From Squalus acanthias (Eukaryota), in the NCBI GenBank assembly GCA_030390025.1, contig CM059432.1, positions 80,230,001 to 80,294,000 of the forward strand: a stretch of DNA of 64,000 nt, given 5' to 3'. Shown piece after piece: positions 96 through 57,422 of this stretch. Below the pieces are notes generated by a model. The model was given only the letters and a program-made list of their open reading frames with translations, ran no database searches and was not told the DNA's origin. Within the stretch, counting starts at the first letter, position 1. Each line of letters opens with the position of its first letter. The position numbers were made by a program, and so were the translations under genes.

Positions 96-183
96 CATAC
101 AAATGCTCATCAATGTGAGAGTGTGAATGAACAATCAATCATTCAGCTAGGTTGTATTAAGAGGATTTACTATATGAGGTTCC

Positions 184-1149: not shown

Positions 1150-2258
1150 ATTGTCTGGGCGTTGTTGGCTAAGTGACAGAAAACAGAGAGTAGTGGTGAA
1201 TGGTTGTTTTGTGGACTGAAGGAAGGTATACAGTGGTGTTCCTCAGGATCCAGTACTAGGACCACTGCTTTTCTTGATGTATATTAATGACTTGGGACTT
1301 GAGAGTACAGGGCACAATTTCAAAATTTGCAGATGACACAAAACTTGGAAGTATAGTGAACAGTGAGGAGGATTGAGATAGACTTCAAGAAGACATAGAT
1401 AGGCTGATGAAATAGGCAGACAAGTGGCAGATGAAATTTAATGCAGAAAAGTGAGAAGTGATACATTTTGGTAGGAAGAATGAGGAAAGGCAATATAAAC
1501 TAAAGGATACAATCCTAAAGGGGGTGCATGAACAGAGAGACCTGGGGGTACAAATCATTGAAGGTGGCAGGGCAGGTTGAGAAAGCGGTTAAAAAAGCAT
1601 ACGGGATCCTGGGCTTTATAAATAGAGTCATAGAGTACATAAGCAAAGAAGTTATGATGAACCTTTATAAAACACTGGTTCGGCCTCAACTGGAGTATTG
1701 TGTCCAATTCTGGGCACCGCACTTTAGGAAGGATGTGAAGGCCTGAGAGAGGGTGCAAAAAAGATTTATGAGAATGGTTCCAGGGATGAGGGACTTCAGT
1801 TACGTGGACAGACTGGAGAAGCTGGGGTTGTTCTCCTTGGAGCAGAGAAGGTTGAGCGGAGATTTGATAGAGGTGTTCAAAATCATGATGGGTCTAGACA
1901 GAGTGGACAGAGAGAAACTGTTCCCGTTGGCGGAAGGGTCGAGAACCAGAGTACACAGATTTAAGGTGATTGGCAAAAAAACCAAAGGTGACATGTGGTA
2001 AAACTTTTTTACGCAGCAAGTGGTTAGGATCTGGAATGCACTGCCTGAAAGGGTGGTGGAGGTAGACTCAATCGTGGCTTTCAAAAGGGAATTGAATAAG
2101 TACCCTGGATAAGTACCTGAAAGAAAAAAAAATTGCAGGGTTACGGGGAAAAGGTGGAGGAGTGGGACTAGCTTAAGTGCTCTTGCAGAGGGCAGGCATG
2201 GGCTCGACAGGCAGAATGGCCTCCTTCTGTGCTGTAACCATTGTATGATTCTATGATT
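1150..2258 (+). mobile_element. CR1 LINE 3' fragment (degenerate)
   Basis: [17 protein letters not shown] and [13 protein letters not shown] motifs with stops; ATTCTATG-type tail. Confidence 0.9.
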
Positions 2259-2646
2259 GTTGACACTATTCGCCCCGTCTATTGCTAGGCTTATTGGACC
2301 ACTCCTTTCTGTGGAGGGTGTCCTTTAGTGCCTCAACTCATTCAGTAGGACTTCAAATACATCTCCAATCTATAAAAAATATTACATCTGGGAGCAATCG
2401 CTGCAAGGCAGTATAGCGACAGTGTGGGAGTCGATTTCAAAGTCCCTGTGATGATCCGACAAGATCAGCAAAATTGAGTTCATCATCAATTTTGGCTTGA
2501 GTGTGACCACAATTAATAACACAGGACAAGTCTGGCTGCTCAGAGTGTATTGGGGTCAGCTTCACATTTTGTGTTGGCCAATTTCTAGAGTACACAGTTC
2601 AGGGAGTTAACTTTCTTTTTCAGTTCTTGATGTGCTCTGTAAATAT

Positions 2647-3325
2647 CATCATAGGAACAGGAGTCGGCTAACCAGCTCCTCAAGCCTGTGAACCATTCAG
2701 TTAGATCATGGCTGATCTGTATCTTAACTCCATTTACTCGCCTTGGTTCCATAACCCTTAAAACCCCTGCCTAACAAAAATCTGTCCATTGCAGTTTTGA
2801 CATTTTCAATTGACTTAGCCTCCAAAGCTTTTTGGGGGAAGAGTTCCAGATTTCCACTCCCCTTTGTGTGAAGAAGTGCTTCCTGACATCACCGCTGAAC
2901 TGCCTAACACGAATCTTAAGGTAAAAGCAAAATACTGCGGATGCTGGAAATCTGAAAACATTTAATCGACATGAACCGTTAACTCTGTTTCTCTCTCCAC
3001 AGATGCTGCCTGACCTGCTGAGTGTTTCCAGCATTTTCTACTTTCATTTCTAATTTTAAGGTTATGCCCCCTTGTTCTGGATTCCCCCACAGAGGAAACA
3101 GTTTCCCTCTATCTACCTTATCAAATCCTTTAATCTTCTATATTCAAGGGAATACAAGCCTAGTCTCTGCAACCTGTCCTCATCATTCTGGTGAATTTGC
3201 GATGCAACCCCTCCAAGGTCAATATATCCTTCCTGAGGCACGGTGCCCAGAATTAAACAGTTTGCAGGATGAGGTACAACCAGACCTTTATATAACTGTA
3301 ACATAATTTCCACCTCTTTGTATTT
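2647..3325 (-). mobile_element. CR1 LINE 3' fragment
   Basis: CR1 3'UTR and RT C-terminus on the minus strand, interrupted at 2922-3050. Confidence 0.8.
2922..3050. mobile_element. Penelope-like pLTR fragment with inverted 5' piece, inserted in CR1
   Basis: Inverted and direct pieces of the pLTR seen at 33620-33757; flanked by AATCTTAAGGT / AATTTTAAGGT. Confidence 0.7.
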
Positions 3326-4855: not shown

Positions 4856-5017
4856 CTAGTTTTTTTTTTAAAAAAAGCAAATTTATTTTTGTTGTAAATT
4901 TCTCTTCAAACATGCAGCATAACAAGACTTTGCTAAACATGCTTTATCTTTCAAACTATATTTTGACTTATCATTTTTATTGTCACTAAATCTATGGTAG
5001 ATAGTAATTTAAATATT

Positions 5018-5781
5018 GGCCCAAAAATTAGTGTTGCTACGCAAGAGTACGCACTGTGTACTCTCACGTATTCTGTCTCCAATTGCCGGTTTTCTGCATG
5101 CACTGCGCATGCGCTGAAAACCGGCACTTGGTGATTTCAAAAGGGGGCGGTTCCTAGGTGAACCGCGTGCGCGCTACAGGCTGCGCGCACGCAGTGCACT
5201 TAGTGCTTTGAACGCGCAGGTAAGTATGGAAGATTTTGCACATAAAGAAAGGAGGCGCAAGACCCTCTTTTAACAAGGTAAGTAGTTAATTAAGTATTAT
5301 TTTGAATTTTTTTCAACAGGTATATCTTTTTTAGAGACTTTAAAGAAAGGTAAGTTTATGTTTATAACTTTTTAAAAGATTTTAAATTCTTTTTAAAAGA
5401 TTTTAAATTTTTTCAAAAATTTAATTTTTTGTTTAAAATGGTTAATTTATTTAACTATACTTATTTTATTAATGTGATGGTTTTTAAAAAAATTTAATTG
5501 AGGTTTAGCTGTTCTTTTAGGGGGGTATAGATTCATAGCTTTCACAGCACTTGTTGTGAAAGCTATGAATGAAAGATGGTGTGCTGCCATTGGCTCTAAC
5601 TGAGTCACGTGATCCCACAGCTCGCACGAATTAACTGCGCCTGTGGGATACGGAAGCCCTGCACAGCTGCTGTCCAGAACATCAAGTTTGTGCGAGCTGG
5701 GAATGAAAAAGCCAGCGCGCAGTGAGAGATCGCGGGGAAGCCTTACCCTCGCACGAAGGCTCCCTCACTAATTTTTGGGCC
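5018..5781 (+). mobile_element. Harbinger-type MITE, family A copy 1
   Basis: Perfect 16-bp TIR GGCCCAAAAATTAGTG / CACTAATTTTTGGGCC with a 3-bp TSD ATT; homologous to 14518, 19919 and 56372. Confidence 0.9.
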
Positions 5782-6369
5782 ATTGTACTTTTACAAAAAA
5801 TAATATTCCTGTAGAATATATCTGTTTCCCACAATGTGTTTATTTATTTTAATCATCCAGAATGTGGACCATTTCTGGAGATTATGACATCAAATTCAGT
5901 TTGGCCCCTATTTTCTGCTTCATTACACCTCATAAATTACTGCAATCAGGGAGTAATGGGGTGTAAATATGGGCACAGATCACTTGTACTTGATTTCTGC
6001 CTATAACGACCATTTCCATTGAGCATTATGACAAGTGCAGGAAGCTCCTGCCAGAAAGAGACCATCACTTCCTTACAATAAATGCAGCAGAGGTGATGTC
6101 ATTTTGACGTCCGCGTTGTTTCCCAGCATTTACACTGGATTATCAATATGCCCGTGCAAAATGGGCATCCAGGATTACGAGGATACAGAAGCTTTGATTT
6201 AAAGGGACAGAGGAAGGGAAAATACAATCTTTGAAGGATACTTTGTAAACGTTCTTATGTAAAAAAATGTTTCCAATTGTTGCCCAGTTAGTCGTTCAGA
6301 TGCCTTTGTGAAAAGCTTTGTGCAGTTGCCGTATTTTGCTTGTATCGTCATAAATTTGGACAATGGGTT

Positions 6370-9725: not shown

Positions 9726-12700
9726 GTTAAGCGGTACTTTTATTTTGAGGAATCAATTCCACTTGAATTTTATTAGTGAACCAAATCTCAGTGTGGTCCA
9801 AAAATGAACTGAGTCATTGAGAAAGAGTTTTTTTAATGTAGCATGTAAACAACATTATATCACTGGGAAGTCACAGCACAACACTGAAGTTGCTGATAGT
9901 GAAAAGGACTGAGTAAGGATTCCAATTCTTATACCAGTTTTTGTTACCAACTTTGTCTCACACAGGTCAAATGTGACTATGAAACCAAGAAGCTGAATTC
10001 CTTGAAGATAATTTGCAATCCCTGGAGAACTAAGTCAGCAACTTCACAGTTGTTTCATCATTTGCTATTCAAAGGCACGACAAATGCGCTGAGCATCGAA
10101 AGAAACACTCCGTTTGAGTTATGATACTGAAAGTGTCACAAATCAACTGTTTGCTTTGAAACCAAATTAGCAATCAGTTTTTCATCCATTATGGTTTTTA
10201 CAAGCTTTAACACAATTAGCATGGGGGATATTAATAATTATCAGGGTAGATTTTAACACTTGGCTGGCTGACCAGCCGGAGGGAGGCCAGGTCTATTTTG
10301 ACGGATGGGCCTCATTACCTCGTGCAGCTCGCGAGCAGGAAGGTGGGTCCAGGGTGGGAGGAGCACTCCTGCTCCTCAAAAATAATTTCCCACTTACCTT
10401 TTTTGGGACCTCTTCCTCTTCACTGCCCGGCACAAACAGTTGAGAAGCCTGCACAGCACAGCTGGTGCCCAGTGTCAAGCAAAACTGCACTGGTGTACAC
10501 AGGACCCTGATTTGCATGCACTAAGAACGTAAGAAATAGGAGCAGGAGTAGGCCATTCGGCCCCTCGAGCCTGCTCTGCCATTCAATACGATCATGGCTG
10601 ATCTTCTACCTCAACTCCACTTTTCTGCATTATCCTCACATCCCTTGATTCCCTTAATATTCAAAAATCTATCGATCTCTGTCTTGAATATACTCAGTGA
10701 CTGAGCCTCCACAGCCCTCTGGGGTACAGAATACCAAAAATTCATCACCCTCTGAGTGAAGAAATTTCTCCTCATCTCAGTCCTAAATGGCCGACCCCTT
10801 ATTCTGAGACTGTGACCCCTGGTTCTAGTCTCCCCAGCCAGTGGAAACATCCTCCCTGCATCTACCCTGCCAAGTCTTCTAAGAATTTTGTATGTTTCAA
10901 TGAGATCACCTATCACTCTTCTAAACTCTAGAGAATATAGGCCTAGTCTACTCAATCTCTCCTCATAGGACAATCCCCATCATTGATATAGATTGTGAAT
11001 AGTTGAGGCCCAAGCACTGATCCTTGCGGTACCTCACTAGTTACAGCCTGCCAACCCGAAAATGACCCATTTATTCCTACTGTTTTCTATCCGTTAACCA
11101 ATCCTCAATCCACGCTACTATATTACCCCCAATCCCATGAGCCCTCATTTTGTTTAATAACCTCTTGTGTAGCACCTTATCGAATGCCTTCTGAAAATGC
11201 AAATACACCATATTCACTGGTTCCCCCTTATCTATTCTGCTAGTTACAACCTTTAAAAAACTCCAACAGATTTGTCAAACACGATTTCCCTTTCATACAT
11301 CCGTGTTGACTCTGCCCAATCCTATTATTATTTTCTAAGTGCCCTGTTACCACATCCTTAATAACAAACTCTAGCATTTTCCCTACTATTAATGTCAAGC
11401 TAACTGGTCTGTAGTTCCCTGTTTTCTCTCCCTCCTTTCTTAAATAGTGGGGTTACATTTATTACCTTCCAATCCACGGGAACCGTTCTAGAATCTATAG
11501 AATTTTGGAAGATGACAACCAATGCATCCATTATCTCTATAGCAACCTCTTTGAAAGCCCTAGGATGTAGGCCATCAGGTCCAGGGGATTTATCGGCTTT
11601 CAGTCTCATTAATTTCTCCAATACTATTTTTTTTTTTACTAATGCTAATTTCAGTTCCTCATTCTCCACTATTTCTGGGAAGTTTTTTGCGTCTTCTTCC
11701 GTGAAGACAGTCACAAAGTATTTGTTTAATTTCTCTGCCATTTCCTTATTCCCCATTATAATTTCCCCTGTCTCAGCCTGTAAGGGACCCACGTTTACCT
11801 TCGCTAATCTTTTCCTTTCTACATACCTATAGAAGCTTTAACAGTCTGTTTTTATGTCTCTCGCTAGTTTACTCTCATTCTATTTTCCCTTTCTTTATCA
11901 ATGTCTTGGTCCTCCTTTGCTGAATTCTAAAATCCTCCCAATCCTCAGGCTTACTACTCTTTCTGGCAAAAAATATAAGCCTCTTCCTTTGATCGAATAC
12001 TATCTTTAACTTCTCTTATTAGCCACGGTTGGACTACTTTTGCTGTGGGGTTTTTGTGCCTTAAAAGGAATGGATATTTGTTGTAAATTATGTATTAATT
12101 CTTTAAATGATAGCCATTGCTGGTCTACCGTCATACCTTTTAATGTAGTTTCCCAATCTACCTTAGCCAACTCACCTCTCATACCTACGTAGTTTGCTTT
12201 GTTTAGATTTAAGACCCAAGTTTCGGATTTGACTAAATCACTTTCAAACTCAATATAAAATGTTATCATATTATGGCCACTCTTCCCTAAAGGCCCCTTT
12301 ACTACAAGGTTATTAATTAACCCTTTCTCATTGCACAATACTAGATCTAAAATAACCGGTTCCCTAGTCGGTTCCTCAACATACTGATTTAGAAAACTAT
12401 CTTGCATACATTCCATGAATTCGTCCTCCACACTATTGCTGCAAATTTGGTTTGCCCAGTCTATATGTAGATTAATGTCCCCCACGATGCCTATAATTTC
12501 CTGATTTATACTCTTTCCTACATTACAACTATTGTTTGGGGGCCTATAAACAACTCCCACCAATGTTTTCTGCCCCTTGCTGTTTCTTACCACCATCCAA
12601 ACTGATTCTACTACTTGATTTTTGGAGCGAAGATACTTTCTCTCTACTGTCTTTCTCCCATCCTTTATCAGGGCTACCCCTCCTCCTTTTCCATTTTGCC

Positions 12701-13440
12701 TATCTCCAAGAGTTAAGTATCCTGGAATATTTAGTTCCCAACCTTGGCCTCTTTGCAACCACGTCTCCGTATCGGCTATTAGATCAAACCTATTAATTTC
12801 TATCTGTGCTATTAATTCATCTATTTTGTTGCGAATGCTTTGCGCACTCAGATATAGTGCCTTTAGCTTTGACTTTTTTCTATTTTTCCCTGATGTCACC
12901 TTAATCACTGATGCCTTATTACCTTTGTTACTCTCTCGGTTCCTTCCTGACCCACTCTGCTTATTTTTACCCAAAACTCTACTCTGCTCTAGAGCCTTGA
13001 CATTTCTCTCGCTGCTTTTAAATTTACACTTTCCTGAATCCTCCCACCCACCGCCCCCCCCTTCATTAGTTTAATGCCCTCTCTATTGCCCTAGTTATTC
13101 GATTCGCAGGACACTGGTCCCAGCCCGGTTTAAGTGGTGCCCGTCCCATCGGAACAGCTCCCTCTTTCCCCAGTACTGGGGCCAGTGTCCCATGAACCAA
13201 AACCCCTTCCTCCCACACCACTCTGAGCCACGCATTTAAACCTCAAATCTGTTTGTTCCTATGCCAGGTAACAATCCAGAGATGATTACCCTTGAGGTTC
13301 TGCTTTTTAATTTAGACCGTAGCTCCTCAAACTCCCTCAGCAGAACCTCATTCCTAGTTCTACCTATGTCGTTGGTTCCTATGTGGACAACGACAACTGG
13401 ATCCCTCCCCCTCCCACAAGTTCTTCTCCAGCCGCGAGGA

Positions 13441-16400
13441 GCTAGGGGCTAAATTAAAAAGCAGAACCTCAAGGGTAATGTCTGTATTATTACCTGAGCC
13501 ACGAGCAAATTGGCATTGGGTAAATAAAATTATAGAGATGTATGCATGGCTCAAAGACTGGTGTGGGAGAAATGGGTTTCGATTCCTGTGGCATTGGCAC
13601 CAGTACTGGGGAAAGTGGGATCTGTATCGTTGGGACGGTCTTCACCTGAATAGTGCTGGGACCAGTGTCCTGGCGAGTCATATAACTAGGGCGATAGAGA
13701 GGGCTTTAAACTAAATAGTGGGGGTAAGGAATAACATTTGGGTAAATCAAAGAGTAGAGACAAGGCAAGAGAGAAAGATATTAATATGGGAAATGATAAA
13801 CACACCATGACAGATTTGTACTCTCTATCCCTTCCTAATAGTAAATCAACAGATAAGGCTAGAGGTTACAAAAATAATAAAAAGACAAAACTAAGGGCTC
13901 TGCATCTGAATGCACGTAGCATTCAAAACAAAACAGATAAACTGATAGGGTAAATAGAAATAAATAAGTACGATCTGATAGCCATCACAGAAACATAGCT
14001 GCAGGATGACATAGAACATGGGACCTGAATATTGAAGGGTACAAGACATTTAGGAAGGGCAGGAAGCTAGGAAAAGGTGGAGGGGTGGCTCTGTTAATTA
14101 ATGATGGTATTAACACAATAGAGGGATGACCTAAGTTCAGGAAACCAGGATGTAGAAACGGTTTGGGTAGAGATGAGAAATGATAAAGGCAAGAAGTCAC
14201 TTGTGGGAGTGGGGTACAGGCCCCCTAACAGTAACCACACGGTAGGATGGAGTATAAAGGAAGAAATAACGGGAGCTTGTCAGAAAGGTACGGCAATAAT
14301 CATGGGGGATTTTAATCTACATATAAACTGGAAAAATCAGAGGGACAAAGGTAGCCTAGATGAGGAGTTTATAGAATGTTTTCGGGATAGTTTCTTACAG
14401 CAGCACATTCTGGAGCCAACCAGAGAGCATGCTATACTTGACCTGGTATTGTGCAACGAGATAGGATTAATTAATGACCTCATAGTGAAGGCGCCCCTAG
14501 GTAGCAGCGATCATAATGGCCCAGAAATTAAACATGGATGCTTCCCGCGGGGGTAAGGATTCCCCGCGATATCGCACTCCGCGCCTACCTTTTTGCTCCG
14601 GGCCCACACGAACTTTAGTTTCAAAGGCTCTCTCTGTTGGAACCGTGCAGTGCTTGCATGACCCAGAGGCGCAATTAGTTCGTGCAAGCTCTGGGATCAC
14701 GTGATTCAGTTAGAGCCAATGGCAGCACACCATCTTTCATTCATAGTTTTGACGGCAAGAGCTGTCAAAGCTATGAATACTACAAACCCCCAAAAGAACA
14801 GCTAAACCTCAATTAAATTTTTTAAAAAGCCATCACATTAATAAAATAAGTATAGTTAAATAAATTAACCACTTTAAACAAAAAATTAAATTTTTGAAAA
14901 ATTTTAAATTTTTTAAAAGTTATAAAAATAAACTTACCTTTCTTTAAAGTCTCTAAAAAAGATAAACCTGTTGAAAAATTTTTAAAACACTTAATTAACT
15001 ACTTACCTTGTTAAAAGGGGGTCCTACGCCTGCTTTCTTTGTGTGTAAAATCTTTACCACTTACCTGCGCGTTCAAAGCTGAAAAAAAACCTAAGTGCAC
15101 TGCGTGCGCACAGCCTGTAGTGCGCACGCGGTTCACTTAGGAACCGCCCCCTTTTCAATTCACGAAGTGCCGGTTTCCCGCGCATGCGCAGTGCATGCAG
15201 GAAACCGGCAATTCGGAATCTAATACGCGAGAGTACACAGTGCGTACTCTCGCGTATTAGGTTTAATTTTCGGGCCATTATGATTGAATTTTACATTCAG
15301 TTTGCGGGAGAGAAGAGTGGGTCCAAGACTAGTATTTTAAACTTAAATAAGGGCAATTAATTGGGCATGAAAGCAGAGCTAGCTAAAGTGAACTGGCAAA
15401 TTAGGTTAACGGATAGGTCAACAGAGTTGCAGTGGCAGACATTTAAGAGGATATTTCAGAATACACAGAATATATACATTCCAACAAGAAAGAAAAATTC
15501 CAAAGGGAGGACCCACCATCCATGGTTAACTAAAAAAGTTAAAGATAGTATCAAACTTAAAGAAAAAGCATATAATTGCGCAAAGATGGGTGGCAGGTCA
15601 GAAGATTGGACAGAATGTAAAAAACAGCAAAGAATGACTAAAAGATTAATAAGGAGAGAAAAATTAGAGTACGAGAGAAAGCTAGCTAGAAATATAAAAA
15701 CATCTAGCAAGAGTTTCTATAGATATTTTAAAAAGAAAAGTTAACAAAGTGAGCATTGGTCCTATAGAAAGTGAGTCTGGGGAATTAATAATGGAAAATA
15801 AGGAGATGGCAGTTGAATTGAACAGGTATTTTGCATCGGTCTTCACTATAGAGGATACAAGTAACATCCCAGAAATAGCTGTAAATCAGGAAATGGAAGG
15901 GAGGGAGGGAGGAACTCAAGAAAATTATAAATCACTAGGGAAGTGGTACTGAGCAAATTGTTGGAGCTGCGGGCTGACAAGTCCCCGGGTCCTGATGGAC
16001 ATCATCCTAGGGTCTTAAAAGAAGTGGCTAGTGAGATAGTTGATGCGTTGGTTTTAATTTTCCAAAATTCCCTAGATTCGGGGAGGGTTCCATTAGATTG
16101 TAAAATAGCAAATGTAACTCCTTTATTCAAAAAGGGAGGGAGACAGAAAGCAGAAAACTACAGGTCAGTTAGCTTAACATCTGTCATAGGGAAAATGTTA
16201 GAAACTATTATTAAAGACGTTATAGCAGGGCACTTAGAAAAGTTCAAGGTAATCAGGCAGAGTCAACATAGTTTTGTGAAAGGGAAATCATGTTTAACCA
16301 ATTTATTGGAGTTCTTTGAGGAAGTAACATGTGCTGTGGATAAAGGGGAACCGGTGGATGTACTGTCCAGAAGGCATTGGATAAGGTGCCACATCAAAGG

Positions 16401-17527: not shown

Positions 17528-19918
17528 ATCCTCCCCCTCCCACTCCAAGTTCTTCTCCAGCCACGAGGATATATCCTTAACCCTGGCACCGGGCAGGCAA
17601 CACAGCCTTTGGTACTCCCTGTCGCGGCTGCAGAGAACAGTATCTATCCCCCTCACTCTACTGTCGCCTACCATATTCCTTTTTACTCCCCCTACTTGAA
17701 AGGCCTCCTGCACCACGGTGCCATGGTCAGTTTGCTCATCCTCCCTGCAGTCCTTGTTCTCATCCAAAATAAGCAGCAAGTACTGCGTACCTGTTGGACA
17801 AAGTCAAGGGCTGAGGCTCCTCCATCACTATATCCTGGGTCCCCATACCTTCTTGACTCGCAGTCACACCCTCTTGTCCCTGACCATTGACTAACTCTGA
17901 AGTACTGCTTAACCTAAGGGGTGTGACTGCCTCCTGGAACAAAGTGTCCAGGTAACTCTCCCCTTCCCTGAAGCATCGTAATGTCTGCAGCTCGGACTCC
18001 AGCCCAACAACTCTGAGCCGAAGTTCCTCGAGCAGCAGGCACTTACCACAGATGTGGTTGCTCGGGATCTCGTTGGTCTCCAACTCCCACATGCTGCAGT
18101 TATGACACACCACTGCACTGCCATCTCTATCTAACCTTATTTTATTTATATAATTAGTTACAGTATTTACTCAAATGATTATTTTTACTTTTAATTTTTA
18201 GTTTTAGTTAGTTCATTTAGTTTAAGTTATTAATTTAATAAAGTTGTAGTTGACACTCTCCCAGTTCTGAATTTAATCCACTTACCTAACCTAGAGAGCA
18301 AAAGAGCTGTAATACTCACCAACCAATCACCTACCTGCTGTCCTGTGACGCCACTCTTTTTTTAAAGTCGCCGCTCAGCTCCCTTTATGCCACCGCCTTC
18401 GCTGCTCCCACTCAGATACGCGCTGTGTCCTGGGCCTTCTCCGGTGCTCCCTTTCAGTCGCCGCCTCCGCTCCTGGTCAGGTCTGTGCTGTGTCCTGGGC
18501 CTTTTCCGGTGTTCCCTCCGCTCCTCATAACGAGGTTCTCACCTTATTTAAGCAGGCACTTGCGCCCCAGTAAATGTGGAGGTGGAGCGGAAATAGGGCG
18601 GTTAGGTTCACCACGGTGATTATAACTCTGCTATCTCTCCATTCTGCCAGGCGAGACAAATTAAAATCAGCCCCATCATGTCTACCTTGAATCCCTTCTT
18701 GAGAATAGGTGGGATGTTTGCTGCTTTTCATTCAGATTGAAAATTAGTGCTACCATAAATGTATGCACTATACAACCAGTACCTAATAGTTGCCACGCTG
18801 ATCAATAGTCTGTTTATACTGGGGCCATTTATTCACTGAATCTTAACCATCCCACAGTAAATTTAACTAATAATCAAGTGTAAATAGAGCATATGATGCC
18901 AATTTCAGCTCGTCTCAATTGAAAAATGCACGCATTTATTTCTTAACGAATTTGGATCAAGCTTATGTAACATATAATCCAAATTCATTCTAAAATTATT
19001 CCATAACATAATAAATACAGCCTTTTGTGCTATATAGAACAGAAATGTAGAACCGCCAAAACTAAAGTTTCCAGAGCATAACTATCAGCAGCCGACAGTC
19101 AGTCAGTTAATTCTGATCTTGTTGATCTGACCTTTCCTGTGTAAGCCACTTTAGCATAAATGGATTCAAAATTTCTGTTTTTGTTTCTTCAAAGTTTCTC
19201 GCTTCATATATGTCAGACCTTTATGTATTCTATGCACCCAATCGAGACACAGTGCAGTACAGCGAACCCCAGTTACTTTAAGACATTTGCAGCACTGTAA
19301 AACTGAAAATGCTGGAAATACACAGCAGGCCAATTAGCATTTGTAAAGAGAAAAGACAGATTACAGGCATTTTGGGTGTGTAACTTTATATTATGCACCC
19401 AAAGTGCCAATGACCTGTCTTTTCTAAGATGTTGACTAACTTGGTTTGTATTTCCATCATTTTCTGTTTTTCTTTCAGCTTTCCAGCATTCATGTTTTTT
19501 TTCCTTTGTAAGCAACTTATTTTTTCTGAAAATTCTCCTTTCAATTTCTTTGTTTGCAAAACATCTTACATGTTGAGATACTGGAAAAGAAACTCTTTTT
19601 TGGTTGGGAGTAAGAAAGTAGAAAAAACTTGCATTTATATAATGCCTTCCACATCCCCAAAATGTCCCAAAGTCCTTCACAGTCAATGAATTACTTTTGA
19701 AGTATAGTCACTATTTTTTGTAGGTATATGCGGCAGACAATTTGTACACAAGGGCCCACAAACAGCAAATGAGATAAATGACCAATTAATCTATTTTGAC
19801 GTTGGTCGATGGCGAAATTTTAGTAGGGCACTGACAGAGCTTCCTTCTTCTTCAAATAATGAAATGGGATCTTTTACTTCCATCTGAACAAGCTGATGGA
19901 GTTTTGGCTTAACATCTT

Positions 19919-20635
19919 GGGCCAAAAATTCGGCACTTGCCGGGTGAGTACGCGCTGTGTACTCACCCGTAAGGCCTCCTGAAATGCCGGTTTCCTGCAT
20001 GCGCGGAAAACCGGAACTTCCGGTCTCGTGAAGGGAGCAGTTCACAGGTGAACCGCGTGCGCGGTAGAGGCTGCGCACACGCAGTAAACTTAGGTTTTTT
20101 TTTCAGGTTTCTCCGGGAGGGCAAGCATTGAAGAAGCTGCGCTTTTAAAAAGGAGGCGTAAGACCCGTTTTCAACAAGGTAAGTGGTTAATTAATTACAA
20201 TTTAAAAAATGATCAGGTTTATCTTTTTTAGATACTTTAAAGAAAGTTAAATTTATTTTTAGCACTATTAAAAAGTATTTTAATTTTTTCAAAAATTAAA
20301 ATTTTTGTTTCAAGTAGTTAATTTAAAAATGTGATGGTTTTTTTTTTATTTGAAGTTTAGGTGTTGTTTTGGGGCCGATTTCAATTCATAGATTTGATGT
20401 CAAATCTATGAATGAAAGACGGTCTGCTGCCATTGGCTCTCCATGGCCCACGTGATCCCAGGGGACGCATCGCACTAACTGCGCCCCTGGGACACGCAAG
20501 CACTGCGCGCCGGCAGTTGGGGGAGGCCCAGGAGCTGAAGTCCCCGTGGGCCCAGAGGTCAACGGCAGGCGCGGTAGGTAGGTGCGCGCGGGATCCTTGC
20601 ACCCGCGGGAAGCCAGGGAGCCGAATTTCTGGGCC
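19919..20635 (+). mobile_element. Harbinger-type MITE, family A copy 3 (diverged subfamily)
   Basis: TIR GGGCCAAAAATTCGGC / GCCGAATTTCTGGGCC, TSD CTT. Confidence 0.85.
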
Positions 20636-20701
20636 CTTATCTGAAAGATGGCACCATGCAATACTTTCTCAGTACTGCACTGAAGTGTTCGCCTAGATCA
20701 T

Positions 20702-23249: not shown

Positions 23250-26200
23250 GAACGGTAGCATAGTGGTTATGTTACTGGACTAATGATCCAGAGACGTGAA
23301 TTCAAATCCCACCACGGCAGCTGGGGACTTTAAATTCAGTTAATTAAATAAATCTGGAATAAAAAGCTAGTATCAGTAATGGTGACCATGAAACTATCGA
23401 ATTGTCGTAAAAACCCATCTGGTTCATGAATGTCCTTTAGGGAAGGAAATCTGCCGTCCTTACCTGGTCTGGCCTATATGTGACTCCAGACCCACAGCAA
23501 TGTGGTTGACTCTTAACTGCCCTCTGAAATGGCCTAGCAAGCCACACAGTTGTAAAAAACAGCTACAAAAAACAAGAATAATAAAACCGGACGGACCACC
23601 CGGCATCGACCTCGGTACCGGCTACGGACACGACAACAGCACTCCCAGCCCAGTCGACCCTGCAACATCTGGGGACTTGTGCCAAAATTGGGAGAGCTGT
23701 CCCACAGACTAGTCAAGCAACAGCCTGACATAGTCATACTCACAGAAGCATAGCTTTCAGCCAATGTCCCAAACTCCTCCATCACCATCCTGGGTATGTC
23801 CTGTTCCACCGGCAGGGGTGGCTGCACAGTGGTATACAGTCAGGAAGGAGGGGCCCTGGGAGTCCTCAACATTGACTCCAGATCCCATGAAGTCCCATGG
23901 CTTCAGGTCAAGCATAGGCAAGGTAACCTACCGCCCTCCTTGGAAGAAGCACTGAGAGTAGCAAGGGCACAGAATGTACTCCGGGTGGGGGACTTCAATG
24001 TCCATCACCAAGAGTGGCTCGGTAGCACACTACTGACTGAGCCCTGAAGGACATAGCTGCCAATCTGGGCTTGCGACAGGTGGAGAGAGAACCAACACGA
24101 AGGAAAAACCTACTTGACCTCGTCCTCACAAATCTACCTGTCGCAGATGCATCTGTCCATGGTAGCAGTGACCACCGCAGTGTCATTGTGGAGACGAAGT
24201 CCCGTCTTCACACCCTCCATCGTGTTGTATGGCATTACTGCTAGATCTGTTCTGAATCTACCTCATTTAGCACCACTGATAGATTCAGAACAGATCTAGC
24301 AGCTCAAAACTGCGCTGTGGGCTATCAGCAGCAGCAGGATTGTATTCCACCACAATCTGTAACCTCATGGCCTGGCATATCCCTCACTCCACCATTACCA
24401 TCAAGGCAGGGGACCAACCCTGGTTCAATAAGGAGTGTAGTAGCAGGCGTACCTAAAAATGCAGAGCCAACCTGGGGAAGCTGCAACACAGGACAACATG
24501 CATGCTAAAAAGTGGAAACAGCATGCTATAGACAGAGCTAGGCAATCGCACAATCAACGGATCAGATCAAAGCTCTGCAGTCCTGCCACATCCAGTCATG
24601 AATGGTGGTGGTGGATCATTAAACAACTAACGGGAGGAGGAGGCTCCATGAATATCCCCATCCTCAATGATGGTGGAGCCCAGCACGTGAGTGCAAAAGA
24701 CAAAGCTGAAGCGTTTGCAACCTCTTCAGCCAGAAGTGCCGAGTGGATGATCCATATCGGCCTCCTCCCGAGGTTCCCACCACCACAGAAGCCAGTCTTC
24801 AGCCAATTCGATTCACTCCACGTGATACCAAGAAACGGAGGAGCGCACTGGATAGAACAAAGGCTGTGGGCCCCGACAACATCCTGGCTGCCGTGCTGAA
24901 GACTTGTGCTCCAGAACTAGCCACGCCTCCAGCCAAGCTGTTCCAGTACAGCTACAACACTAGCATCTATTCAACAATGTGGAAAACTGCCCAGGTATGT
25001 CCTGTCCACAAAAAGGACAAATCCAATCCGGCCAATTTCCACCCCATCAGTCGACTTTCAATCATCAGCAAAGTGATGGAAGGTGTCGTCAACAGTGCTA
25101 TCAAGCAGCACTTACTCACCAATAACCTGCTCACTGATGCCCAGTTTGGGTTCTGCCAGGACCACTTGGCTCCAGACCTCATTACAGCCTTGGTCCAAAC
25201 ATGGACAAAAGAGCTGAATTCCAGAGGTGAGGTGAGAGTGACTGCCCTTGACATCAAGGCAGCATTTGACAGAGTGTGGCATCAAAGAGCCCTAATAAAA
25301 CTGAAGTCAATGGGAATCGGGGGGAAAACTCTCCACTGGCTGGAGTCATACCTAGCACAAATGAAGATGGTGGTGGTTGGAGGTCAATCATCATAGCCCC
25401 AGGATATCGCTGCAGGAGTTCCTCAGGGCAGTGTCCGAGGCCCAACCATCTTCAGCTGCTTCATCAATGACCTACCCTCCATCATAAGGTCAGAAATGGT
25501 GACGTTCGCTGATGACTGCAGAGTGTTCAATTCCATTCACAACTCCTCAGATAATGAAGCAGTCCATGCCCGCCTGCAGCAAGACCTGGACGACATTCAG
25601 GCTTGGGCTGATAAGTGGCAGGCAACATTCGTGCCACAGAAGTGCCAGGCAATGACCATCTCCAACAAGCGAGCATCTAACCGCCACCCCTTGACATTCG
25701 ACAGCATGACTATCGCCAAATCCCCCACCATCAATATCCTGGGGGTCACCATTGACCAGAAACTTAACTGGACCAGCCACATAAATACTGTGGCAACAAG
25801 AGCAGGTCAGAGGCTAGGTATTCTGCAGAGAGTGTCTCACCTCCTGACTCCCCAAAGCCTTTCCACCATCTACAAGGCACAAGTCAGGAGTGTGATGGAA
25901 TACTCTCCACTTGCCTATGAGTGCAGCTCCAACAACACTCAAGAAGCTCGACACCATCCAAGACAAAACAACCCGCTTGATGGTACCCCATCCACCACCT
26001 TAAACATTCACTCCCTCCACCACCAGCGTACCGTGGCTGCAATGTCTACCATCTACAAGATGCACTGCAGCAACTCACCAAGGCTTCTTTGGCAGCACCT
26101 CCCAAACCCGCAACCTCTACCACCTAGAAGGACAAGGGCAGCAGGAGCATGGGAACACCACCACCTCCAAGTTCCCCTCCAAGTCACACACCATCCTGAC

Positions 26201-26396
26201 TTAGAAGTATATCGCCGTTCCTTCATCGTCGCTGGGTCAAAATCCTGGAACTCCCTCCCTAACAGCACTGTGGGAGTACCTTCACCACACGGTTCAAGGC
26301 GACGGCTCAATACCACCTTTTCAAAGGCAGCTACGGATGGGCAATAAATGCTGGCCTTGCCAGCAACGCCCACATCCCATGAACGAATAAAGAAAA
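23250..26396 (+). mobile_element. tRNA-headed single-ORF LINE (APE-RT, CR1/Jockey-group RT), copy 1, degenerate
   Basis: A box TAGCATAGTGG (23256-23266) and B box ATTCAAATCC (~23300). APE motifs NIWGLVPK..PDIVILTE and VGDFN; RT motifs ALDIKAAFDRVWH, GVPQGSV.GP and FADD; A-rich end. Confidence 0.9.
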
Positions 26397-27439: not shown

Positions 27440-27680
27440 TGTGAAAACACCATCACCTCCATGTTTCCGCCATCCTGATTTAGAAATATATCACCGTTAC
27501 TTCATCGTCGATTGGTTAATATCCTGGAATTCCCTACCTATTGCCATTGTGGAAACACCATCACAAGCACTGCAGTAATTCCAGGAGAAGGCCCACCACT
27601 ACCTATTAAGGAAAAGTAGGGATGGGCAATAAAGGAGGCCCTGCCAGTGTTGCCACACACCAAGAACATTTTTTTAAATA
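27440..27680 (+). mobile_element. Diverged 3' fragment of the tRNA-headed LINE family
   Basis: Homologous to 26150-26390 (SWNSLP, GGATGGGCAATAAA); ends in T7. Confidence 0.7.
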
Positions 27681-29052: not shown

Positions 29053-29480
29053 GTGGATGGGAAGATGGGGGCAAGGTATGTTTGAATATAAATGTTGATC
29101 GTCCTAATATTTAGTTTTCAACGGGTTTTTTTCTCCCACTTGGATTCTAGAGTTAATTTTCCAGCAGGGCAAATCTGCAACAGCAGAAAGCAGCACGACA
29201 AAGAATTTCTTCAGCAATGAGAGCTGCAACTCATGGTCTCCAACCTGGCAGCAAAGTGTGAAAGTCGGGGGTGTGTTTGCAAGACTGCGGCTTGGACTGG
29301 CGGCGCAGCACGTGACCCAGGGCTGCGGCTCCGGCTCCAGCCGCCCAACCTGCGCAGAGGGGGAGTCTGAGGGGAGAAGGGGGAGTCTGAGGGAGGGAAG
29401 GGGGAGTCTGAGGGAGGGAAGGGGGAGTCTGAGGGAGGGAAGGGGGAGTCTGAGGGAGGGAAGGGGGAGTCTGAGGGAGG
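29053..29480 (-). promoter_or_regulatory. Probable CPA6 5'UTR/proximal promoter, CpG-rich
   Basis: Directly upstream of the CPA6 ATG; locally CpG-rich (29280-29356) with a CACGTG E-box and a CCGCCC GC box. The TSS cannot be determined. Confidence 0.55.
29359..29480 (+). repeat. 21-bp G-rich minisatellite (GGGGGAGTCTGAGGGAGGGAA)n
   Basis: About 6 visible tandem units, running into the N gap. Confidence 0.95.
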
Positions 29481-29680
29481 NNNNNNNNNNNNNNNNNNNN
29501 NNNNNNNNNNNNNNNNNNNNNNNNNNNNNNNNNNNNNNNNNNNNNNNNNNNNNNNNNNNNNNNNNNNNNNNNNNNNNNNNNNNNNNNNNNNNNNNNNNNN
29601 NNNNNNNNNNNNNNNNNNNNNNNNNNNNNNNNNNNNNNNNNNNNNNNNNNNNNNNNNNNNNNNNNNNNNNNNNNNNNNNN
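29481..29680. other. Assembly gap (200 N)
   Basis: Run of N. Confidence 1.
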
Positions 29681-37498: not shown

Positions 37499-38750
37499 TA
37501 CATAAGAACATAAGAAGTAAGAGCAGGAGTAGGCCATATGGCCCCTTGAGCCTGCTCCGCCATTCAATAAGATCATGGCTGATCATCGACCTCAACTCCA
37601 CTTTCCCGCCCGATCTCCATATCCCTTGATTCCCCTAGAGTCTATTTCAGCCTTGAATATACTCAATCACTCAGCATCCACAGCCCTGTGGGGCAGAGAA
37701 TTCCAAAGATTCACAACCCTCTGAGTGAAGAAATTCTTCCGCATCTCAGTCTTAAATGGCCTACCCCTTATCCTGAGACTATGCCACCTAGTTTGAGACA
37801 CTCCAGCCAGGGGAAACAACCTCTCAGCATCTACCCTATCAATCCCCTTCAGGATCTTGTATGTTTCAATGAGATCACCTCTCATTCTTCTAAACTCCAG
37901 AGAGTATAGGCCCATTCTACACAACCTATCATCATAGGACAGTCCTCTCATCCTAGGAATCAATCTAGTGAACCTTCGTTGCACCGCCTTCAAGGCAAGT
38001 ATATCCTTCCTTAGATAAGGAGACCAAAACTGTGCACAGTACTCCAGGTGTGGTCTTACCAAGGCCCTGTACAATTGTAGCAAGACTTCCTTACTCTTAT
38101 ACTCCAACCCCCTTGCAATAAAGACCAACATGCCATTTGCCTTCCTTACTGCTTGCTGTACCTGCATGCTAGCTTTCTGTGTTTCTTGCACAAGGACACC
38201 CAAATCTCTCTGAACACCAACATTTGAAAATTTCTCACCATTTAAAAAATATTCTGTTTTTCTATTCTTCCTACCAAAGTGAAAAACCTCACATTTCCCT
38301 ACATTATTCTCCATCTGCCACCTTACTGCCCACTCACTTAGTCTATCTATATCCCTTTGCAGACTCTTTGTGTTCTCCTCACAGCTTACTGTTCCACCTA
38401 GCTTTGTATCATCAGCAAACTTGGATACATTACATTCGGTCCCTTCATCTAGGTCATTAATATAGATTGTAAATAGCTGAGGCCCCAACACTGATCCTTG
38501 CGGCACCCCACTAGTTACAGCCTGCCAACCTGAAAAAGATCTGTTTATCCCTACTCTCTGTTTTCTGTCCATTTACCAATCCTCTATCCGTGCTACTATA
38601 TTACCCCCAACCCCATGAGCCTTCATCTTGTGTAATAACCTTTTATGTGGCACCTTATCGAATGCCTTTTGGAAATCCAAATATACTACATCCACTGGTT
38701 CCCCTTTATCTACCCTGCTAGTTACATCCTCAAAAATCTCTAATAAATTT
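37499..38750 (-). mobile_element. CR1 LINE 3' fragment
   Basis: 301-aa RT ORF 37667-38572 ([17 protein letters not shown]); TTCTTATG tail. Confidence 0.92.
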
Positions 38751-47383: not shown

Positions 47384-47876
47384 TCTTAAAGGGGATGGTT
47401 AATCTTGCTTTCCATCCACATCCTGTTCATTGCAGCCTTGAATCTCGGCCTGGAGAGACTTGCACATCAAATGTGCTGGAAAGAACAATGGAGAGTACCA
47501 GGCAAAGAGCTCAGAGTGCAGCTCCCACAGTCTCTGCTAAATCGATACAAGGAATGGCAAATCAAAATGAACCTGCAAAGTGCTGCTCAGTACCCAACAC
47601 TCCTTCACACAATGTTGAATCTCTCCAGAAGTCTCTCCCTCTCTCTCTCAGAATGCGTAGTTCAAAAATGCCACCAACAATAAAAGACAGGAAGAGGCCC
47701 CCTTTAAATAGCGCCCCCCCCAGCCCCACAGTGATTGATAGCGTTCCAGTCTTCTGGTCGTTGGATGCGCCAGGCGGTAAGGCAGGGGGCGCCACTCAAT
47801 TTCCGCTCCGGGGCGCCACAAGGGCGTTGCACCATGGAATGATGTCACAATCTGCGCGCGCAGGTGGTCGCAGCGG
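47384..47876 (+). mobile_element. TIR-less internal segment of MITE family C inserted in CR1
   Basis: Colinear with about 21218-21672; flanked by TAAAGT on both sides. Confidence 0.8.
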
Positions 47877-48906
47877 TAAAGTGTCACAAAACATATTTGA
47901 AAGTTCTCTATCTGAATGCACGTAGCATTCGTAACAAAATAGACGAGTTAATGGCACAAATAACTACATATGGGTATGATCTTGTGGCCATTACAGAAAC
48001 ATGGCTGCAGGGTGACAATGCCTGGGAATTAAACATACCAGGTTATTTAACGATCAGGAAGGACAGGCAGGAAGGAAGGGGAGGTGGGGTGGCTATGTTA
48101 ATAAAGGAAGGAATCACTGTAATACAGAGAAATGATATTGGGTCAAAAGATCAGGATAATGAAACAGTTTGGGTGGAGATAAGGAATAATAAGGGGGAAA
48201 AAAAACGAGTGGGTGTAGTCTATAGGCCTCTGAACAGTTGCAACTCTGTTGGACGGAGTATCAATCAGGAAATAGTTGAGGCTTGTAATAAGGGAACAGC
48301 TATAATTATGGGGGATTTTAACTATCATATTAATTGGACAAATCAAATTGGGCAGGGCTGCCTTGAGGATGAGTTCATTGAGTGTGTTAGGGAAGGGTTT
48401 CTTGAGCAGTATGTAACTGAACCGACCAGGGGGCAAGCAACCTTACATCTGGTCCTGTGTAACGAGACAGGATTAATTAAAAATGTCCTAGTAAAGGATC
48501 CCCTTGGAATGAGTGACCATAACATGGTTGAATTCCATATTCAATTAGAGGGTGAGAAGGTTGGATCTCAAACAAGCGTGCTAAGCTTGAATAAAGGAGA
48601 CTATGAAGGTATGCGAGCAGAATTGAGTAGAGTGGATTGGGAAAATAGATTAAAGGGTAAGACGATACATGATCAGTGGTGTACATTTAAGGAGTTATTT
48701 TACAACTTCCAAAAAAAAAATATTCCACTGAGAAGAAAAGGGTGTAAAAGAAAAGACAGTCATCTGTGGCTAAGTAAAGAAATTAAGGATAGTATTCGAC
48801 TAAAAACAAGATTTATAAGGTAGCCAAATCTAGTGGGAGGATAGAGGATTGGGAAAACTTTAAAAGACAGCAAAAAATAACAAAAAGATTGATTAAGAAA
48901 GGGAAG

Positions 48907-53411: not shown

Positions 53412-56400
53412 ATTTTTTTAAAATTCGTTTATGGGATGTGGGCGTCGCTGGCAAGGCCAGCATTTATTGCCTATCCCTAATGGCCCTTGAGAAGGTGGTG
53501 GTGAGCCGCCGCCTTGAACCGCTGCAGTCCGTGTGGTGAAGGTACTCCCACAGTGCTGTTAGGTAGGGAGTTCCAGGATTTTGACCCAGCGACGATGAAG
53601 ATTCGGCGATATACTTCTAAGTCAGGATGGTGTGTGACTTGGAGGGGAACTTGGAGGTGGTGGTGTTCCCATGCTCCTGCTGCCCTTGTCCTTCTAGGTG
53701 GAAGAGGTCGTGGGTTTGGGAGGTGCTGCCGAAGAAGCCTTGGCAAGTTGCTGCAGTGTATCTTGTAGATGGTACACACTGCAGCTACAGTACGCCAGTG
53801 GTGGAGGGAGTGAATGTTTAAGGTGGTGGATGGGGTGCCAATCAAGCGGCTGCTTTGTCCTGGATGGTGTCGAGCTTCTTGAGTGTTGTTGGAGCTGCAC
53901 TCATCCAGGCAAGTGGAGAGTATTCAATCACACTCCTTACTTGTGCCTTGTAGATGGTGGAAAGGCTTTGGGGAGTCAGGAGGTGAGACTCTTTGCAGAA
54001 TACCTAGCCTCTGACCTGCTCTTGTTGCCACAGTATTTATGTGGCTGGTCCAATTAAGTTTCTGGTCAATGGTGACCCCCCAGGATGTTGATGGTGGGGG
54101 ATTCAGCGATGGTAATGCCGTTGAATGTCAAGGGGAGGTGGTTAGACTCTCGCTTGTCGGAGATAGTCATTGCCTGGCACTTCTGTGGCGCGAATGTTAC
54201 CTGCCACTTATCAGCCCAAGTCTGAACGTCATCCAGGTCTTGTTGCATGCGGTCATGGACTGCTTCATTATCTGAGGGGTTGTGAATGGCGCTGAACACT
54301 GTGCAGTCATCAGCAAACATTTCCATTTCTGACCTTCTGTTGGAGGGAAGGTCATTGATGAAGCAGCTGAAGATGGTTGGGCCTAGGACACTGCCCATAG
54401 GAACTCCTGCAGCGATGTCCTGGGGCTATGATGATTGACCTTCAACCACCACAACCGTCTTCCTTTGTGCTAGGTATGACTCCAGCCAGGGGAGCGTTTC
54501 CCCCCCCGCCCCCCCCGATTCCCATTGACTTCAGTTTTACGAGGGCTCCTTGATGCCACACTCGGTCAAATGCTGCCTTGATGTCAAGGGCAGTTACTCT
54601 CACCTCACCTCTGGAATTCAGCTCCTTTGTCCATGTTTGGACCAAGGCTGTAATGAGGTCGGGAGCCAAGTGGTCTTGGCGGAACCCAAACTTGGCATCA
54701 GTGAGCAGGTTTTTGGTGAGTAAGTGCCACTTGATAGCACTGTCGATGACACCTTCCATCACTTTGCTGATGATTGAGAGTAGACTGATGGGGCGGTAAT
54801 TGGCCGGGTTGGATTTGTCCTGCTTTTTATGGACAGGACATACCTGGGCAATTTTCCACATTGTTGGATAGATGCCAGTGTTGTAGCTGTACTGGAACAG
54901 CTTGGCTAGAGGCGCGGCTAGTTCTGGAGCACAAGTCTTCAGCACGATAGCCAGGTTGCTGTCGGGGCCCATAGCCTTTGCTGTATCCAGTGCGCTCAGC
55001 CGTTTCTTGATATCACGTGGAGTGAATCGAATTGTCTGAAGACTGGCTTCTGTGATGGTGGGACCTCAGGAGTAGGCCGATATGGATCATCCACTCGGCA
55101 TTTCTGGCTGAAGGTGGTTGCAAATGCTTCAGCCTTGTCTTTTGCACTCGTGCTGGGCTCCACCATCATTGAGGATGGGGATATTCATGGAGCCTTCTCC
55201 TCCCGTTAGTTGTTTAATGGTCCACCACCATTCACGACTGGATGTGGCAGGACTGCAGTGCTTTGATCTGATCCGTTGCTTGTGGGATCACTTAGCCCTG
55301 TCTATAGCATGCTGCTTCCGCTTTTTAGCACGCATGTAGTCCTGTGTTGCAGCTTCCCCAGGTTGACACCTCATTTTTAGGTATGCCTGGTGCTGCTCCT
55401 GCATGCTCTTCTACCCTCCTTATTGAAACAGGGTTGGTCCCCTGGCTTGGTGGTAATGGTAGAGTGAGGGATATGCCGGGCCATGAGGTTACAGATTGTG
55501 GTGGAATACAATTCTGCTGCTGCTGATGGCCCACAGCGCCTCATGATGCCCAGTTATGAGCTGCTAGATCTGTTCTGAATCTATCCCATTTAGCACGGTG
55601 GTAGTGCCACACAACACGATGGAGGGTGTCCTCAGTGTGAAGACGGGACTTCGTCTCCACAATGACTGTGCGGTGGTCACTTCTACCAATACTGTCATGG
55701 ACAGATGCATCTGCGACAGGTAGATTGGTGAGGACGAGGTCAAGTAGGTTTTTCCCTCGTGTTGGTTCTCTCACCACCTGTCGCAGGCCCAGACTGGCAG
55801 TTATGTCCTTCAGGACTCGGCCAGTAGTGGTGCTACCGAGCCACTCCTGGTGATGGACATTGAAATCCCCCACCCAGAGTACATTCTGTGCCCTTGCTAC
55901 TCTCAGTGCTTCTTCCAAGTGGTGTTCAACATGGAGGAGTACTGATTCATCAGCTGAGGGAGGGCGGTAGGTGGTAATCAGCAGGAGGTTTCCTTGCCCA
56001 TGCTTGACCTGCAGCCATGAAACTTCATGGGGTCTGGAGTCAATGTTGAGGACTCCCAGGGCCACTCCTTCCCGACTGCATACCACTGTGCCGCCACCCC
56101 AGGTGGGTCTGTCATGCCGGTGGGACAGGACATACCCAGGGATGGTGATGGAGGAGTTTGGGACATTGGCTGAAAGGTATAATTCTGTGAGTATGACTAT
56201 GTCAGGCTGTTGCTTGACTAGTCTGTGGGACAGCTCTCCCAATTTTGGCACAAGTCCCCAGATGTTGGTGAGGAGGACTTTGCAGGGTCGACTGGGCTGG
56301 GTATGCCGTTGCCGTGTCCGTAGCCGGTGCTGAGGTTGATGCCAGGTGGTCCGTCCGGTTTCACTCTTAATAGCCCGGATTTTCCGATTGGAGGCTTCCT

Positions 56401-57422
56401 GCGTGCGGATGCCTCCGATCGGGAAAAATCTACGAATTTACCTGCTGGCTCTGCAGGTCCCGACACTTATGCTCCTGGGCCTCTCCTGGTCGCGCGCGCA
56501 GAGGCCCAGGTATCCCAGGGGCGCAGGCAGTTCGCAAGCGTTCCTGGGATCACGTGGGCCATAGGGAACCAATCAAAGAAGGGAATCCCCTTCACACTTT
56601 TGATAGGTTTCTCTGCATATATCTGTCAAAAGTATGAATGGGGATCACTCAAAAAACAGTTAAATATTAAATAATTTTTTTTCAAATCACGTATTTAAAA
56701 TTAGTTAAAATGACATTAAATTATAAATTTTAAACAAAAATTTAATTTTTTGAAAAAAATAATTAAAGTTTTTTCTGGGGCTAAAAATAAACATAATTTT
56801 TTTTCACTTATTTATAATTTAAAAATATTTTTTTAACTTTTTTAAACTCTTTTGCTGGTAAAAGCAGGCATAAGATTTTTAAAGGTTTTCAGGGGCGGAG
56901 ATTGTGCAGAAAGTGGAACTCTCTGTCCGCGGAGGCCCATCTCCCGGCAGGTGGAGGATCTGCCAAGAGAATTCTTGACAGATTCGAAGTGCCGGTTTTC
57001 AGTGCATGTGCTTTGCATGCCTGAAACCGACACTTGCAAGGCCCCTACAGGTGTGTACACAGCTTGTACGTGGTGGTCGGAAAATACAGGCCACGATGTT
57101 TCGTAGCGGTTAGTTACAACTGAGTGACTTGCTAGGCCATTTCAGAGGGCAGTTAAGAGTCAACCACATCGCTGTGGGTCTGGAGTCACAGATAGGCCAG
57201 GCGGCAGATTTTCTTCCCTAAAGGACATTAGTGAACCAGATGGGTTTTTACGACAATCTGATAGTTTCATGGTTACAATTACTGATACTGGCTTTTTATT
57301 CCAGATTTATTTAATTAACTGAATTTAAATTCCCCAGCTGCTGTGGTGGGATTTGAACTCACCTGAATCATTAGTCCAGAATGGATTACTAGCCCAGTGA
57401 CATTACCACTACGCTGCCGTTC
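53412..57422 (-). mobile_element. tRNA-headed single-ORF LINE, copy 2 (contains family A MITE)
   Basis: Same GAACGG start, A box CAGCGTAGTGG, B box GTTCAAATCC, APE ORF 55541-56251, RT ORFs, and the same 3' end as copy 1. Confidence 0.9.
56372..57092 (-). mobile_element. Harbinger-type MITE, family A copy 4 (diverged subfamily)
   Basis: TIR AGCCCGGATTTTCCGA / TCGGAAAATACAGGCC; shared internal hairpins; TSD not clean. Confidence 0.75.

Follow-up and report, generated by a model that had tools for sequence, protein, structure and literature searches.

By the usual division, LINEs are coding units transcribed by RNA polymerase II (Pol II), and SINEs are non-coding units transcribed by Pol III. 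The tRNA-derived SINEs with LINE tails (SINE2) consist of a head with A and B boxes, a body and a LINE tail, and polyadenylated SINEs of the B2, Dip and Ves types carry AATAAA and a T-run of variable length before the A tail, which can lengthen after insertion (PMC8466645). Partner LINEs have been named for some SINEs, L2 for other shark SINEs (PMC5499810) and CR1-Zenon for SINEs of bivalves (PMC11481361), where CR1-Zenon averages 5.2 kb (PMC10294476). Lepidopteran Zenon, with its derivative Persaeus, has a length of ~3.3 kb (Table 1 in PMC6740152), a poly(A)-type end and short forms that arise by internal deletion, and Persaeus is described in that paper as having neither tRNA homology nor a Pol III promoter. 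By eye, several of the Zenon 5’ ends in its supplement open with an A-box-like word; the paper states no Pol III promoter.

Pol III promoters and tRNA-like sequences have also been described in retrotransposons other than SINEs. The TRIMp3 elements Cassandra, Helenus and Ajax carry Pol III promoters derived from small RNAs, but they are non-autonomous LTR elements of up to ~1.3 kb, whose autonomous partners are argued to need Pol II (PMC10886601). RTE-1_DAn and related elements are LINEs of another clade that contain a tRNA-like sequence (PMC5786205). RTE-1_DAn may be an undescribed precedent for the element reported here; we found no further description of its tRNA-like part in the literature.

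Here we describe an abundant LINE family of the shark Squalus acanthias, a 3.3-kb non-LTR element with a single APE-RT ORF and a tRNA-type head at its 5’ end. Like Zenon it is ~3.3 kb long, has a poly(A)-type end and forms short elements by internal deletion, and like the TRIMp3 elements it carries a candidate Pol III promoter outside the SINEs; unlike Persaeus, it has a tRNA-derived head. The short derivatives share the SINE2 layout and are short and non-coding, whereas the main form is 3.3 kb long and encoded an APE-RT under selection.

Copies in the window and the 5’ end of the element

The window (the whole 64,000-nt stretch of DNA analysed) holds two near full-length copies on opposite strands and an older fragment (Table 1). 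Copy 1 (23250-26391, +) is 89% identical to the family majority sequence (nt 1-3303) and copy 2 (53423-57422, -) 96%. The first-pass annotation had described two copies with tRNA-type A and B boxes and a common GAACGG start, and the sequence and the alignment to the family bear out both copies and both pairs of boxes, except that the B box of copy 1 lacks a conserved G. Of the duplicated pair of anticodon-like arms, copy 1 also retains just one. Both copies do start at GAACGG, but full-length copies begin GGGAACGG, so those of the window lack ~2 nt. The APE frame of copy 2 is open over 298 aa with a Pfam match. The T7-ended sequence noted earlier as a third fragment is an old 3’ end of the same family (27453-27647 is 75% identical to family nt 3075-3275). 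The single TTTT (T4) run reported for copy 1 (26318-26321) was confirmed, as was the single T4 of copy 2 outside its insertion (53420-53423); the insertion itself has 11 runs of T4 or longer.

Table 1. Positions of the LINE copies and their parts in the window.
Feature	Positions	Strand	Remarks
Copy 1, near full-length headed LINE	23250..26396	+	Decayed (frameshifts, stops); tblastn, several frames
tRNA-derived head, copy 1	23250..23319	+	One anticodon-like arm here; family majority has two
A box, copy 1	23256..23266	+	From sequence, by what we take to be the consensus
B box, copy 1	23298..23309	+	Conserved G is A here, judged against family columns
5’ UTR body	23320..23528	+	Several upstream AUGs
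Predicted hairpin just 5’ of ORF	23524..23549	+	7-nt loop; pair probability 0.83-0.88
Start region, copy 1	23529..23567	+	In-frame ATG 23529, TAG 23535, TAA 23553, then GCT, putative first codon
Single APE-RT ORF, remains	23565..26334	+	Pfam Exo_endo_phos_2 and RVT_1
3’ tail	26335..26396	+	Stem-loop (fold), AATAAA, A-rich end; common to short derivatives
Old 3’ fragment of same family	27453..27675	+	Ends T7 then A; 75% identity
Copy 2, near full-length headed LINE	53412..57422	-	T4 and A tail at 3’ end
Copy 2 boxes and ACG	A box 57416-57406, B box 57360-57349, ACG 57104-57102	-	
Later MITE-like insertion	56373..57091	.	Between ACG and APE region of copy 2; 15-nt inverted ends

The 15-nt inverted ends of the insertion are 87% complementary, and similar pieces of this AT-rich MITE-like family lie at 5009-5784, 14513-15281 and 19909-20640. 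The window also holds a 567-aa open frame for a hAT transposase with DUF659 and hAT dimerisation domains (57919-59622, -), 10-bp tandem repeats just upstream of copy 2 (57624-57684), and a G-rich 21-bp tandem repeat (29358-29680) that runs into a 200-base N gap.

The head proved to be integral to the LINE and not a SINE that lies next to it by chance. Exact head-to-ORF junctions number 3,261 in this shark genome, against 0 for a reversed control. A query with the body gave 25,079 candidates, 40 of which were scored to yield 30 loci; of the 12 other loci extending to the ORF start, 11 have the head and one stops at the junction. With APE alone as the query, 24 of 29 other loci run on into the head (two pairs among them being duplicates), 16 of these reaching its tRNA part, and the remaining five end at nt 322-348 in five different, unrelated flanks. 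No alternative 5’ end was seen among these 29 copies, and upstream of the ORF there is only a 330-nt leader, with no ORF1 as in the two-ORF CR1 layout (longest other frames 98-120 codons), in agreement with the first-pass annotation. When the head alone was used, 24 of 29 other loci went on into the ORF and five jumped to the 3’ tail. Among 83 distinct full heads the GGG start is sharp, with G at the three positions preceding AACGG in 66-78% and random sequence further upstream.

As expected of a LINE, copies are dispersed and 5’-truncated, with a fixed 3’ end and an A-rich tail. Their flanks are unrelated, indicating that the head is not a target site: no target sequence was found after the 3’ end or before truncated copies, and the 5’-truncated copies have no head in front of them. 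Target-site duplications were short or absent in 19 full-length copies. One headed copy (L315, 180-285) sits within a very abundant tandem repeat.

The closest named protein matches are shark gene models. A horn shark model (XP_067869966.1) matches nt 257-439 with E 1e-9, a stretch that begins in the head body and crosses to the start of the ORF, and whale shark models contain pieces of the ORF, so the link between body and ORF is not limited to this lineage; these models cover the head body and the ORF, and the joined tRNA part was seen in the S. acanthias copies. Contigs from four sequencing runs of other organisms cover all 30 bins of the element, head included, and two show head-to-tail joints; no piece bridging head and ORF was among the contig pieces listed from these runs, for which the reference copy had deletions in the head. 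Pieces of the LINE also occur in the shark gene models P0106, P0218 and P0220 (aldo-keto reductase-like, RGM-like and Ig V-like), possibly as annotation artefacts.

As in SINE2 elements, the head is tRNA-derived with A and B boxes. Sister copies reach 16.5-21.4 bits with the Rfam tRNA model, whose gathering score is 29; ARAGORN called a tRNA in one of 16 loci. A D arm, an anticodon arm (doubled in most copies) and a T arm are recognisable, in contrast to a poor acceptor stem. A tRNA-Gln-like gene of the genome (L123) has a matching anticodon stem and T arm. Conservation of the two boxes above background was not demonstrated, and there was no excess of misincorporation at T-loop A58 (one of 83 heads). 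Processing of the head by RNase P is not favoured, because the acceptor stem is poorly paired in a relaxed ARAGORN fold.

Selection on the ORF and avoidance of T-runs

The majority sequence of 27 copies has a single stop-free frame of 972 codons that encodes both APE and RT (Pfam Exo_endo_phos_2 and RVT_1; best solved-structure matches L1 ORF2p and R2). None of the copies seen is intact; the longest natural frame runs to 815 codons, and the median non-CpG divergence of copies is 3.4%. After removal of duplicates (203 of 251 loci kept) we analysed 53 headed near-full copies with CpG sites left out. Variants at a frequency of at least 10% had a dN/dS of 0.24-0.38 and no stops, against 1.0-1.1 and 74 stops for singletons. 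An older subfamily (12 copies) with the same head differs by 44 synonymous and 28 non-synonymous changes and no stops. Variants in head and body 2 kb apart are linked, though imperfectly (r2 up to 0.68-0.79 in 26 copies). This purifying selection in headed masters shows that the family was autonomous, as had been suggested. No separate, distant head-less sister family was found in the genome; old fragments are ~75% identical to the young family.

In a quick RT tree (83 rows, midpoint root) the family falls into a 67-row clade with SH-aLRT 100 that includes the lepidopteran proteins P0081 and P0113 as well as sponge and brittle-star proteins, with five CR1-type shark ORFs apart. From their motifs we take the lepidopteran proteins to be Zenon. 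The tree, a step proposed earlier, contains no named Zenon reference; the family would be a Zenon-like LINE of the Zenon/CR1 group, a label that rests on these motifs and on published descriptions. A whale shark preprint names a ‘CR1-Zenon like LINE’ (10.1101/443036), which suggests that the family is probably already within repeat libraries. A description of its head was not found in the literature, in a search that did not extend to the Repbase/Dfam libraries.

The first-pass annotation had remarked on the near lack of T4 and proposed a comparison with codon-preserving shuffles. The majority sequence has no T4, with A4, C4 and G4 as expected, and the majority sequence of the older subfamily is T4-free too. 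Zero T4 is significant against base shuffles (P=0.013) but not beyond chance under synonymous shuffles (0 vs 1.8-1.9, P=0.10-0.12) or Markov models (P=0.2-0.6). TTT runs, thought at first to be common, are in fact scarce (7, where base shuffles give 20). Depletion is clearer for TT across codon junctions (8 vs 24.8 in synonymous shuffles, P<0.0005), for T3 (5 vs 11.3, P=0.003) and for T4 or broken T-runs (T3VT, TVT3) counted together (0 vs 4.4, P=0.003), out of about ten T statistics tried. Human Pol III can terminate at broken T-runs (PMC3141230). A-runs, which are the T-runs of the other strand, are not depleted.

This avoidance is particular to the family. Two sets of controls were used. 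Of 25 other LINE ORFs of the shark, 14 remained after 3 family fragments and 8 under 220 aa were dropped, and their ratios were 0.83-0.93; ratios were 0.80-0.93 in 10 relatives (of 59, selected by low T or by their place in the clade, a set without DNA from the nearest protein relatives). The junction-TT ratio is 0.32 in this family and below 0.71 in no control, some of the controls being individually significant. At 19% T the ORF is poor in this base, and the majority of controls have more of it. Decayed family frames have 0.23 T4 per kb, compared to 2.65 in 25 other LINE ORFs, and phenylalanine makes up 1.9% of the protein against a mean of 4.1% across 104 homologues, four of which are as low. 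Shared mutations that would create T4 fall at just five silent sites and gave no power. Remnants of CR1-type and other LINE ORFs in the window (49759-51510, +; 47843-48823, +; 12006-13070, -; 37667-38572, -) served as T-run controls. Four relatives, P0012, P0016, P0017 and P0018, form a clade that is equally Phe-poor (1.6-1.8%).

Unlike the shark family, its relatives mostly start with Met and are T4-rich, with at least 3 T4 in all 59 long relative ORFs from metagenomes. None of seven in-clade metagenome relatives has a B box upstream. Since the relatives lack this box and are rich in T4, the head and the T avoidance look like gains of the shark lineage. Relaxed tRNA calls upstream of relatives were noise (17 real vs 27 in shuffles).

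Start of translation and short derivatives

The ORF opens poorly to scanning for an AUG. The first 330 nt of the majority sequence contain eight ATGs, and the open frame has no Met before codon 286. The first-pass annotation saw no in-frame ATG in the ~100 nt before the APE motif; in copy 1 one lies 135 nt upstream of the motif, closed by a TAG and a TAA. This ATG, 36 nt 5’ of the putative start, is kept in 91 of 94 copies and can be read into the ORF in two. Genome-wide, among junctions where the second stop is absent, the first stop TAG is present at 476 and open at 144, so that both stops are open at 144 junctions. The first base of this TAG (family nt 307, window 23535) is tri-allelic, T in 84, C in 20 and G in 19 of 124 copies, in old and young subfamilies alike. 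Most copies therefore lack a usable AUG, as had been proposed, with the in-frame ATG shut by stops and ACG, ACA or AGG at the start position. The putative first codon, after GCT, was tallied in 69 copies (ACG 34, ACA 18, ATG 8), and the spread has the pattern of CpG decay of ACG. It is ACA in copy 1 and ACG in the family majority, and the junctions listed show subfamilies with ACA or AGG. Given the closed ATG and these codons, initiation would be non-AUG in most masters, or the protein would come from a minority of transcripts. The leader read from the closed ATG resembles the N-terminus of the homologue P0004 (P=0.001 by shuffling, the best among 14 tried), suggesting that the closed ATG may be the ancestral start. 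A 75-codon uORF was considered as a frameshift entry and rejected, being stopped in a subfamily with CTAA at the junction.

AUG-independent translation has been discussed for non-LTR elements, and the dicistrovirus IGR IRES has a non-AUG start (PMC3894237), as is proposed here; the putative first codon varies between shark subfamilies. Across 124 copies, one stem pair of the predicted hairpin just 5’ of the ORF occurs as G-C (91 copies) or as G-U (27 copies), a variant that keeps the pairing; no compensatory two-sided change in the stem was seen in the 124. As a lead only, its modelled loop might pair with the GCT before the first codon, as in the dicistrovirus IRES. Unlike that IRES, the hairpin has no Rfam match and no compensatory changes, and the pairing of 3-4 bp could arise by chance. 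A search of four copies for IRES or ribozyme families gave no Rfam match at E up to 5-10, a search that unfamiliar folds could escape.

At least 2,032 exact head-to-tail junctions mark SINE-like deletion derivatives of the element (control 0); the pattern differs in stringency from that for head-to-ORF junctions, and the ratio of the two counts is therefore rough. The short forms have many breakpoints, some of them recurring, which fits repeated internal deletion. With five of 29 head-selected loci also of this kind, the LINE is the parent of SINE-like elements with the same head and tail, a possibility that had been raised at the outset.

The polymerase and what it would mean

From the head, the coding strand and the ORF, we judge it probable that this is an autonomous, ORF1-less Zenon-like LINE transcribed by Pol III. 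A tRNA-derived internal promoter would have been taken over by a LINE in an early shark; TFIIIC would bind the A and B boxes, and Pol III would copy the whole 3.3 kb and stop at a T-run in the element’s end or in the flank. Under such transcription the coding strand would have shed its T-runs. The weaker step is translation: because the in-frame ATG is closed by stops, we propose that ribosomes would enter the uncapped RNA internally near nt 335 and begin at ACG or with no initiator codon. Elements of this group insert their RNA through target-primed reverse transcription by the APE-RT, which binds the 3’ stem-loop. Deletions within the element that spare its head and tail would make ready-made SINEs in one step. 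The whole scheme, in which Pol III transcription from end to end, codons reshaped against terminators, uncapped AUG-less translation by internal entry, persistence across shark orders and SINE formation by deletion together make a living LINE-SINE intermediate, is tentative, with not quite an even prospect of holding in full. The 3’ ends weigh on both sides: among 119 of 146 that could be classified, 22 have T4 or more before the A tail and 26 have T2-3, resembling polyadenylated SINEs, and 71 carry one T only, which weighs against Pol III. So do the lack of significance of zero T4 under codon and Markov models, the T-richness of most controls and the unremarkable A58. A further point against it is the weak processivity described for Pol III, whose SINE products measure 100-700 bp (PMC10886601).

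Would a Pol II transcript do as well? The family could be an autonomous LINE driven by an internal or read-through Pol II promoter, with the SINE-derived head as a captured 5’ UTR and the T poverty caused otherwise, for example by avoidance of U-rich polyadenylation or splice signals. Published accounts have LINEs transcribed by Pol II (PMC10886601, PMC5786205), the absence of T4 taken by itself lacks significance, translation would be easier with a cap, and the extra 5’ Gs could be a copied cap. We nevertheless find this unlikely, as the other LINEs of the genome, presumably Pol II-transcribed, show little T-run depletion, the eight upstream AUGs and the closed in-frame ATG fit scanning badly, and the 5’ end lies exactly at the tRNA head. 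Alternatively the life cycle may be split: Pol III would make the template RNA, and the protein would be supplied by capped read-through transcripts of Pol II, which are rarer, or by those few copies whose ATG is usable. The head, the T avoidance and the missing start would then be accounted for jointly; the junctions with both stops open and the ATG gained by CpG decay could supply such messengers, and the protein, as the short derivatives show, acts in trans. Such a division seems quite unlikely, however, because the ORF of stop-bearing headed lineages is under purifying selection, which points to protein and template from the same masters, and because TAG outnumbers the open state even where the second stop is missing.

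Template switching is known to produce SINE-LINE chimeras (PMC5786205), and the head might have been acquired in that way by a non-autonomous element, have come to lie there by chance, or have been a SINE used by the LINE as its insertion site. These readings are largely refuted and in our view very improbable: the APE-selected copies have no other 5’ end, the ORF of headed copies is under selection, the 3’ flanks are unrelated and truncated copies are not preceded by the head, and the junction recurs in the horn shark gene model.

Even if Pol II transcribes the element, we did not find in the literature searched any autonomous LINE to which a SINE head is fixed across shark orders. If the Pol III reading is true, a coding Pol III LINE would break the division between Pol II LINEs and Pol III SINEs, and SINEs that carry the head and tail of their LINE would have a one-step origin by deletion and not by addition of a head. 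In this family a vertebrate would also have a natural Pol III messenger of 3.3 kb, with which the range of Pol III and the translation of uncapped, AUG-less RNA become testable.
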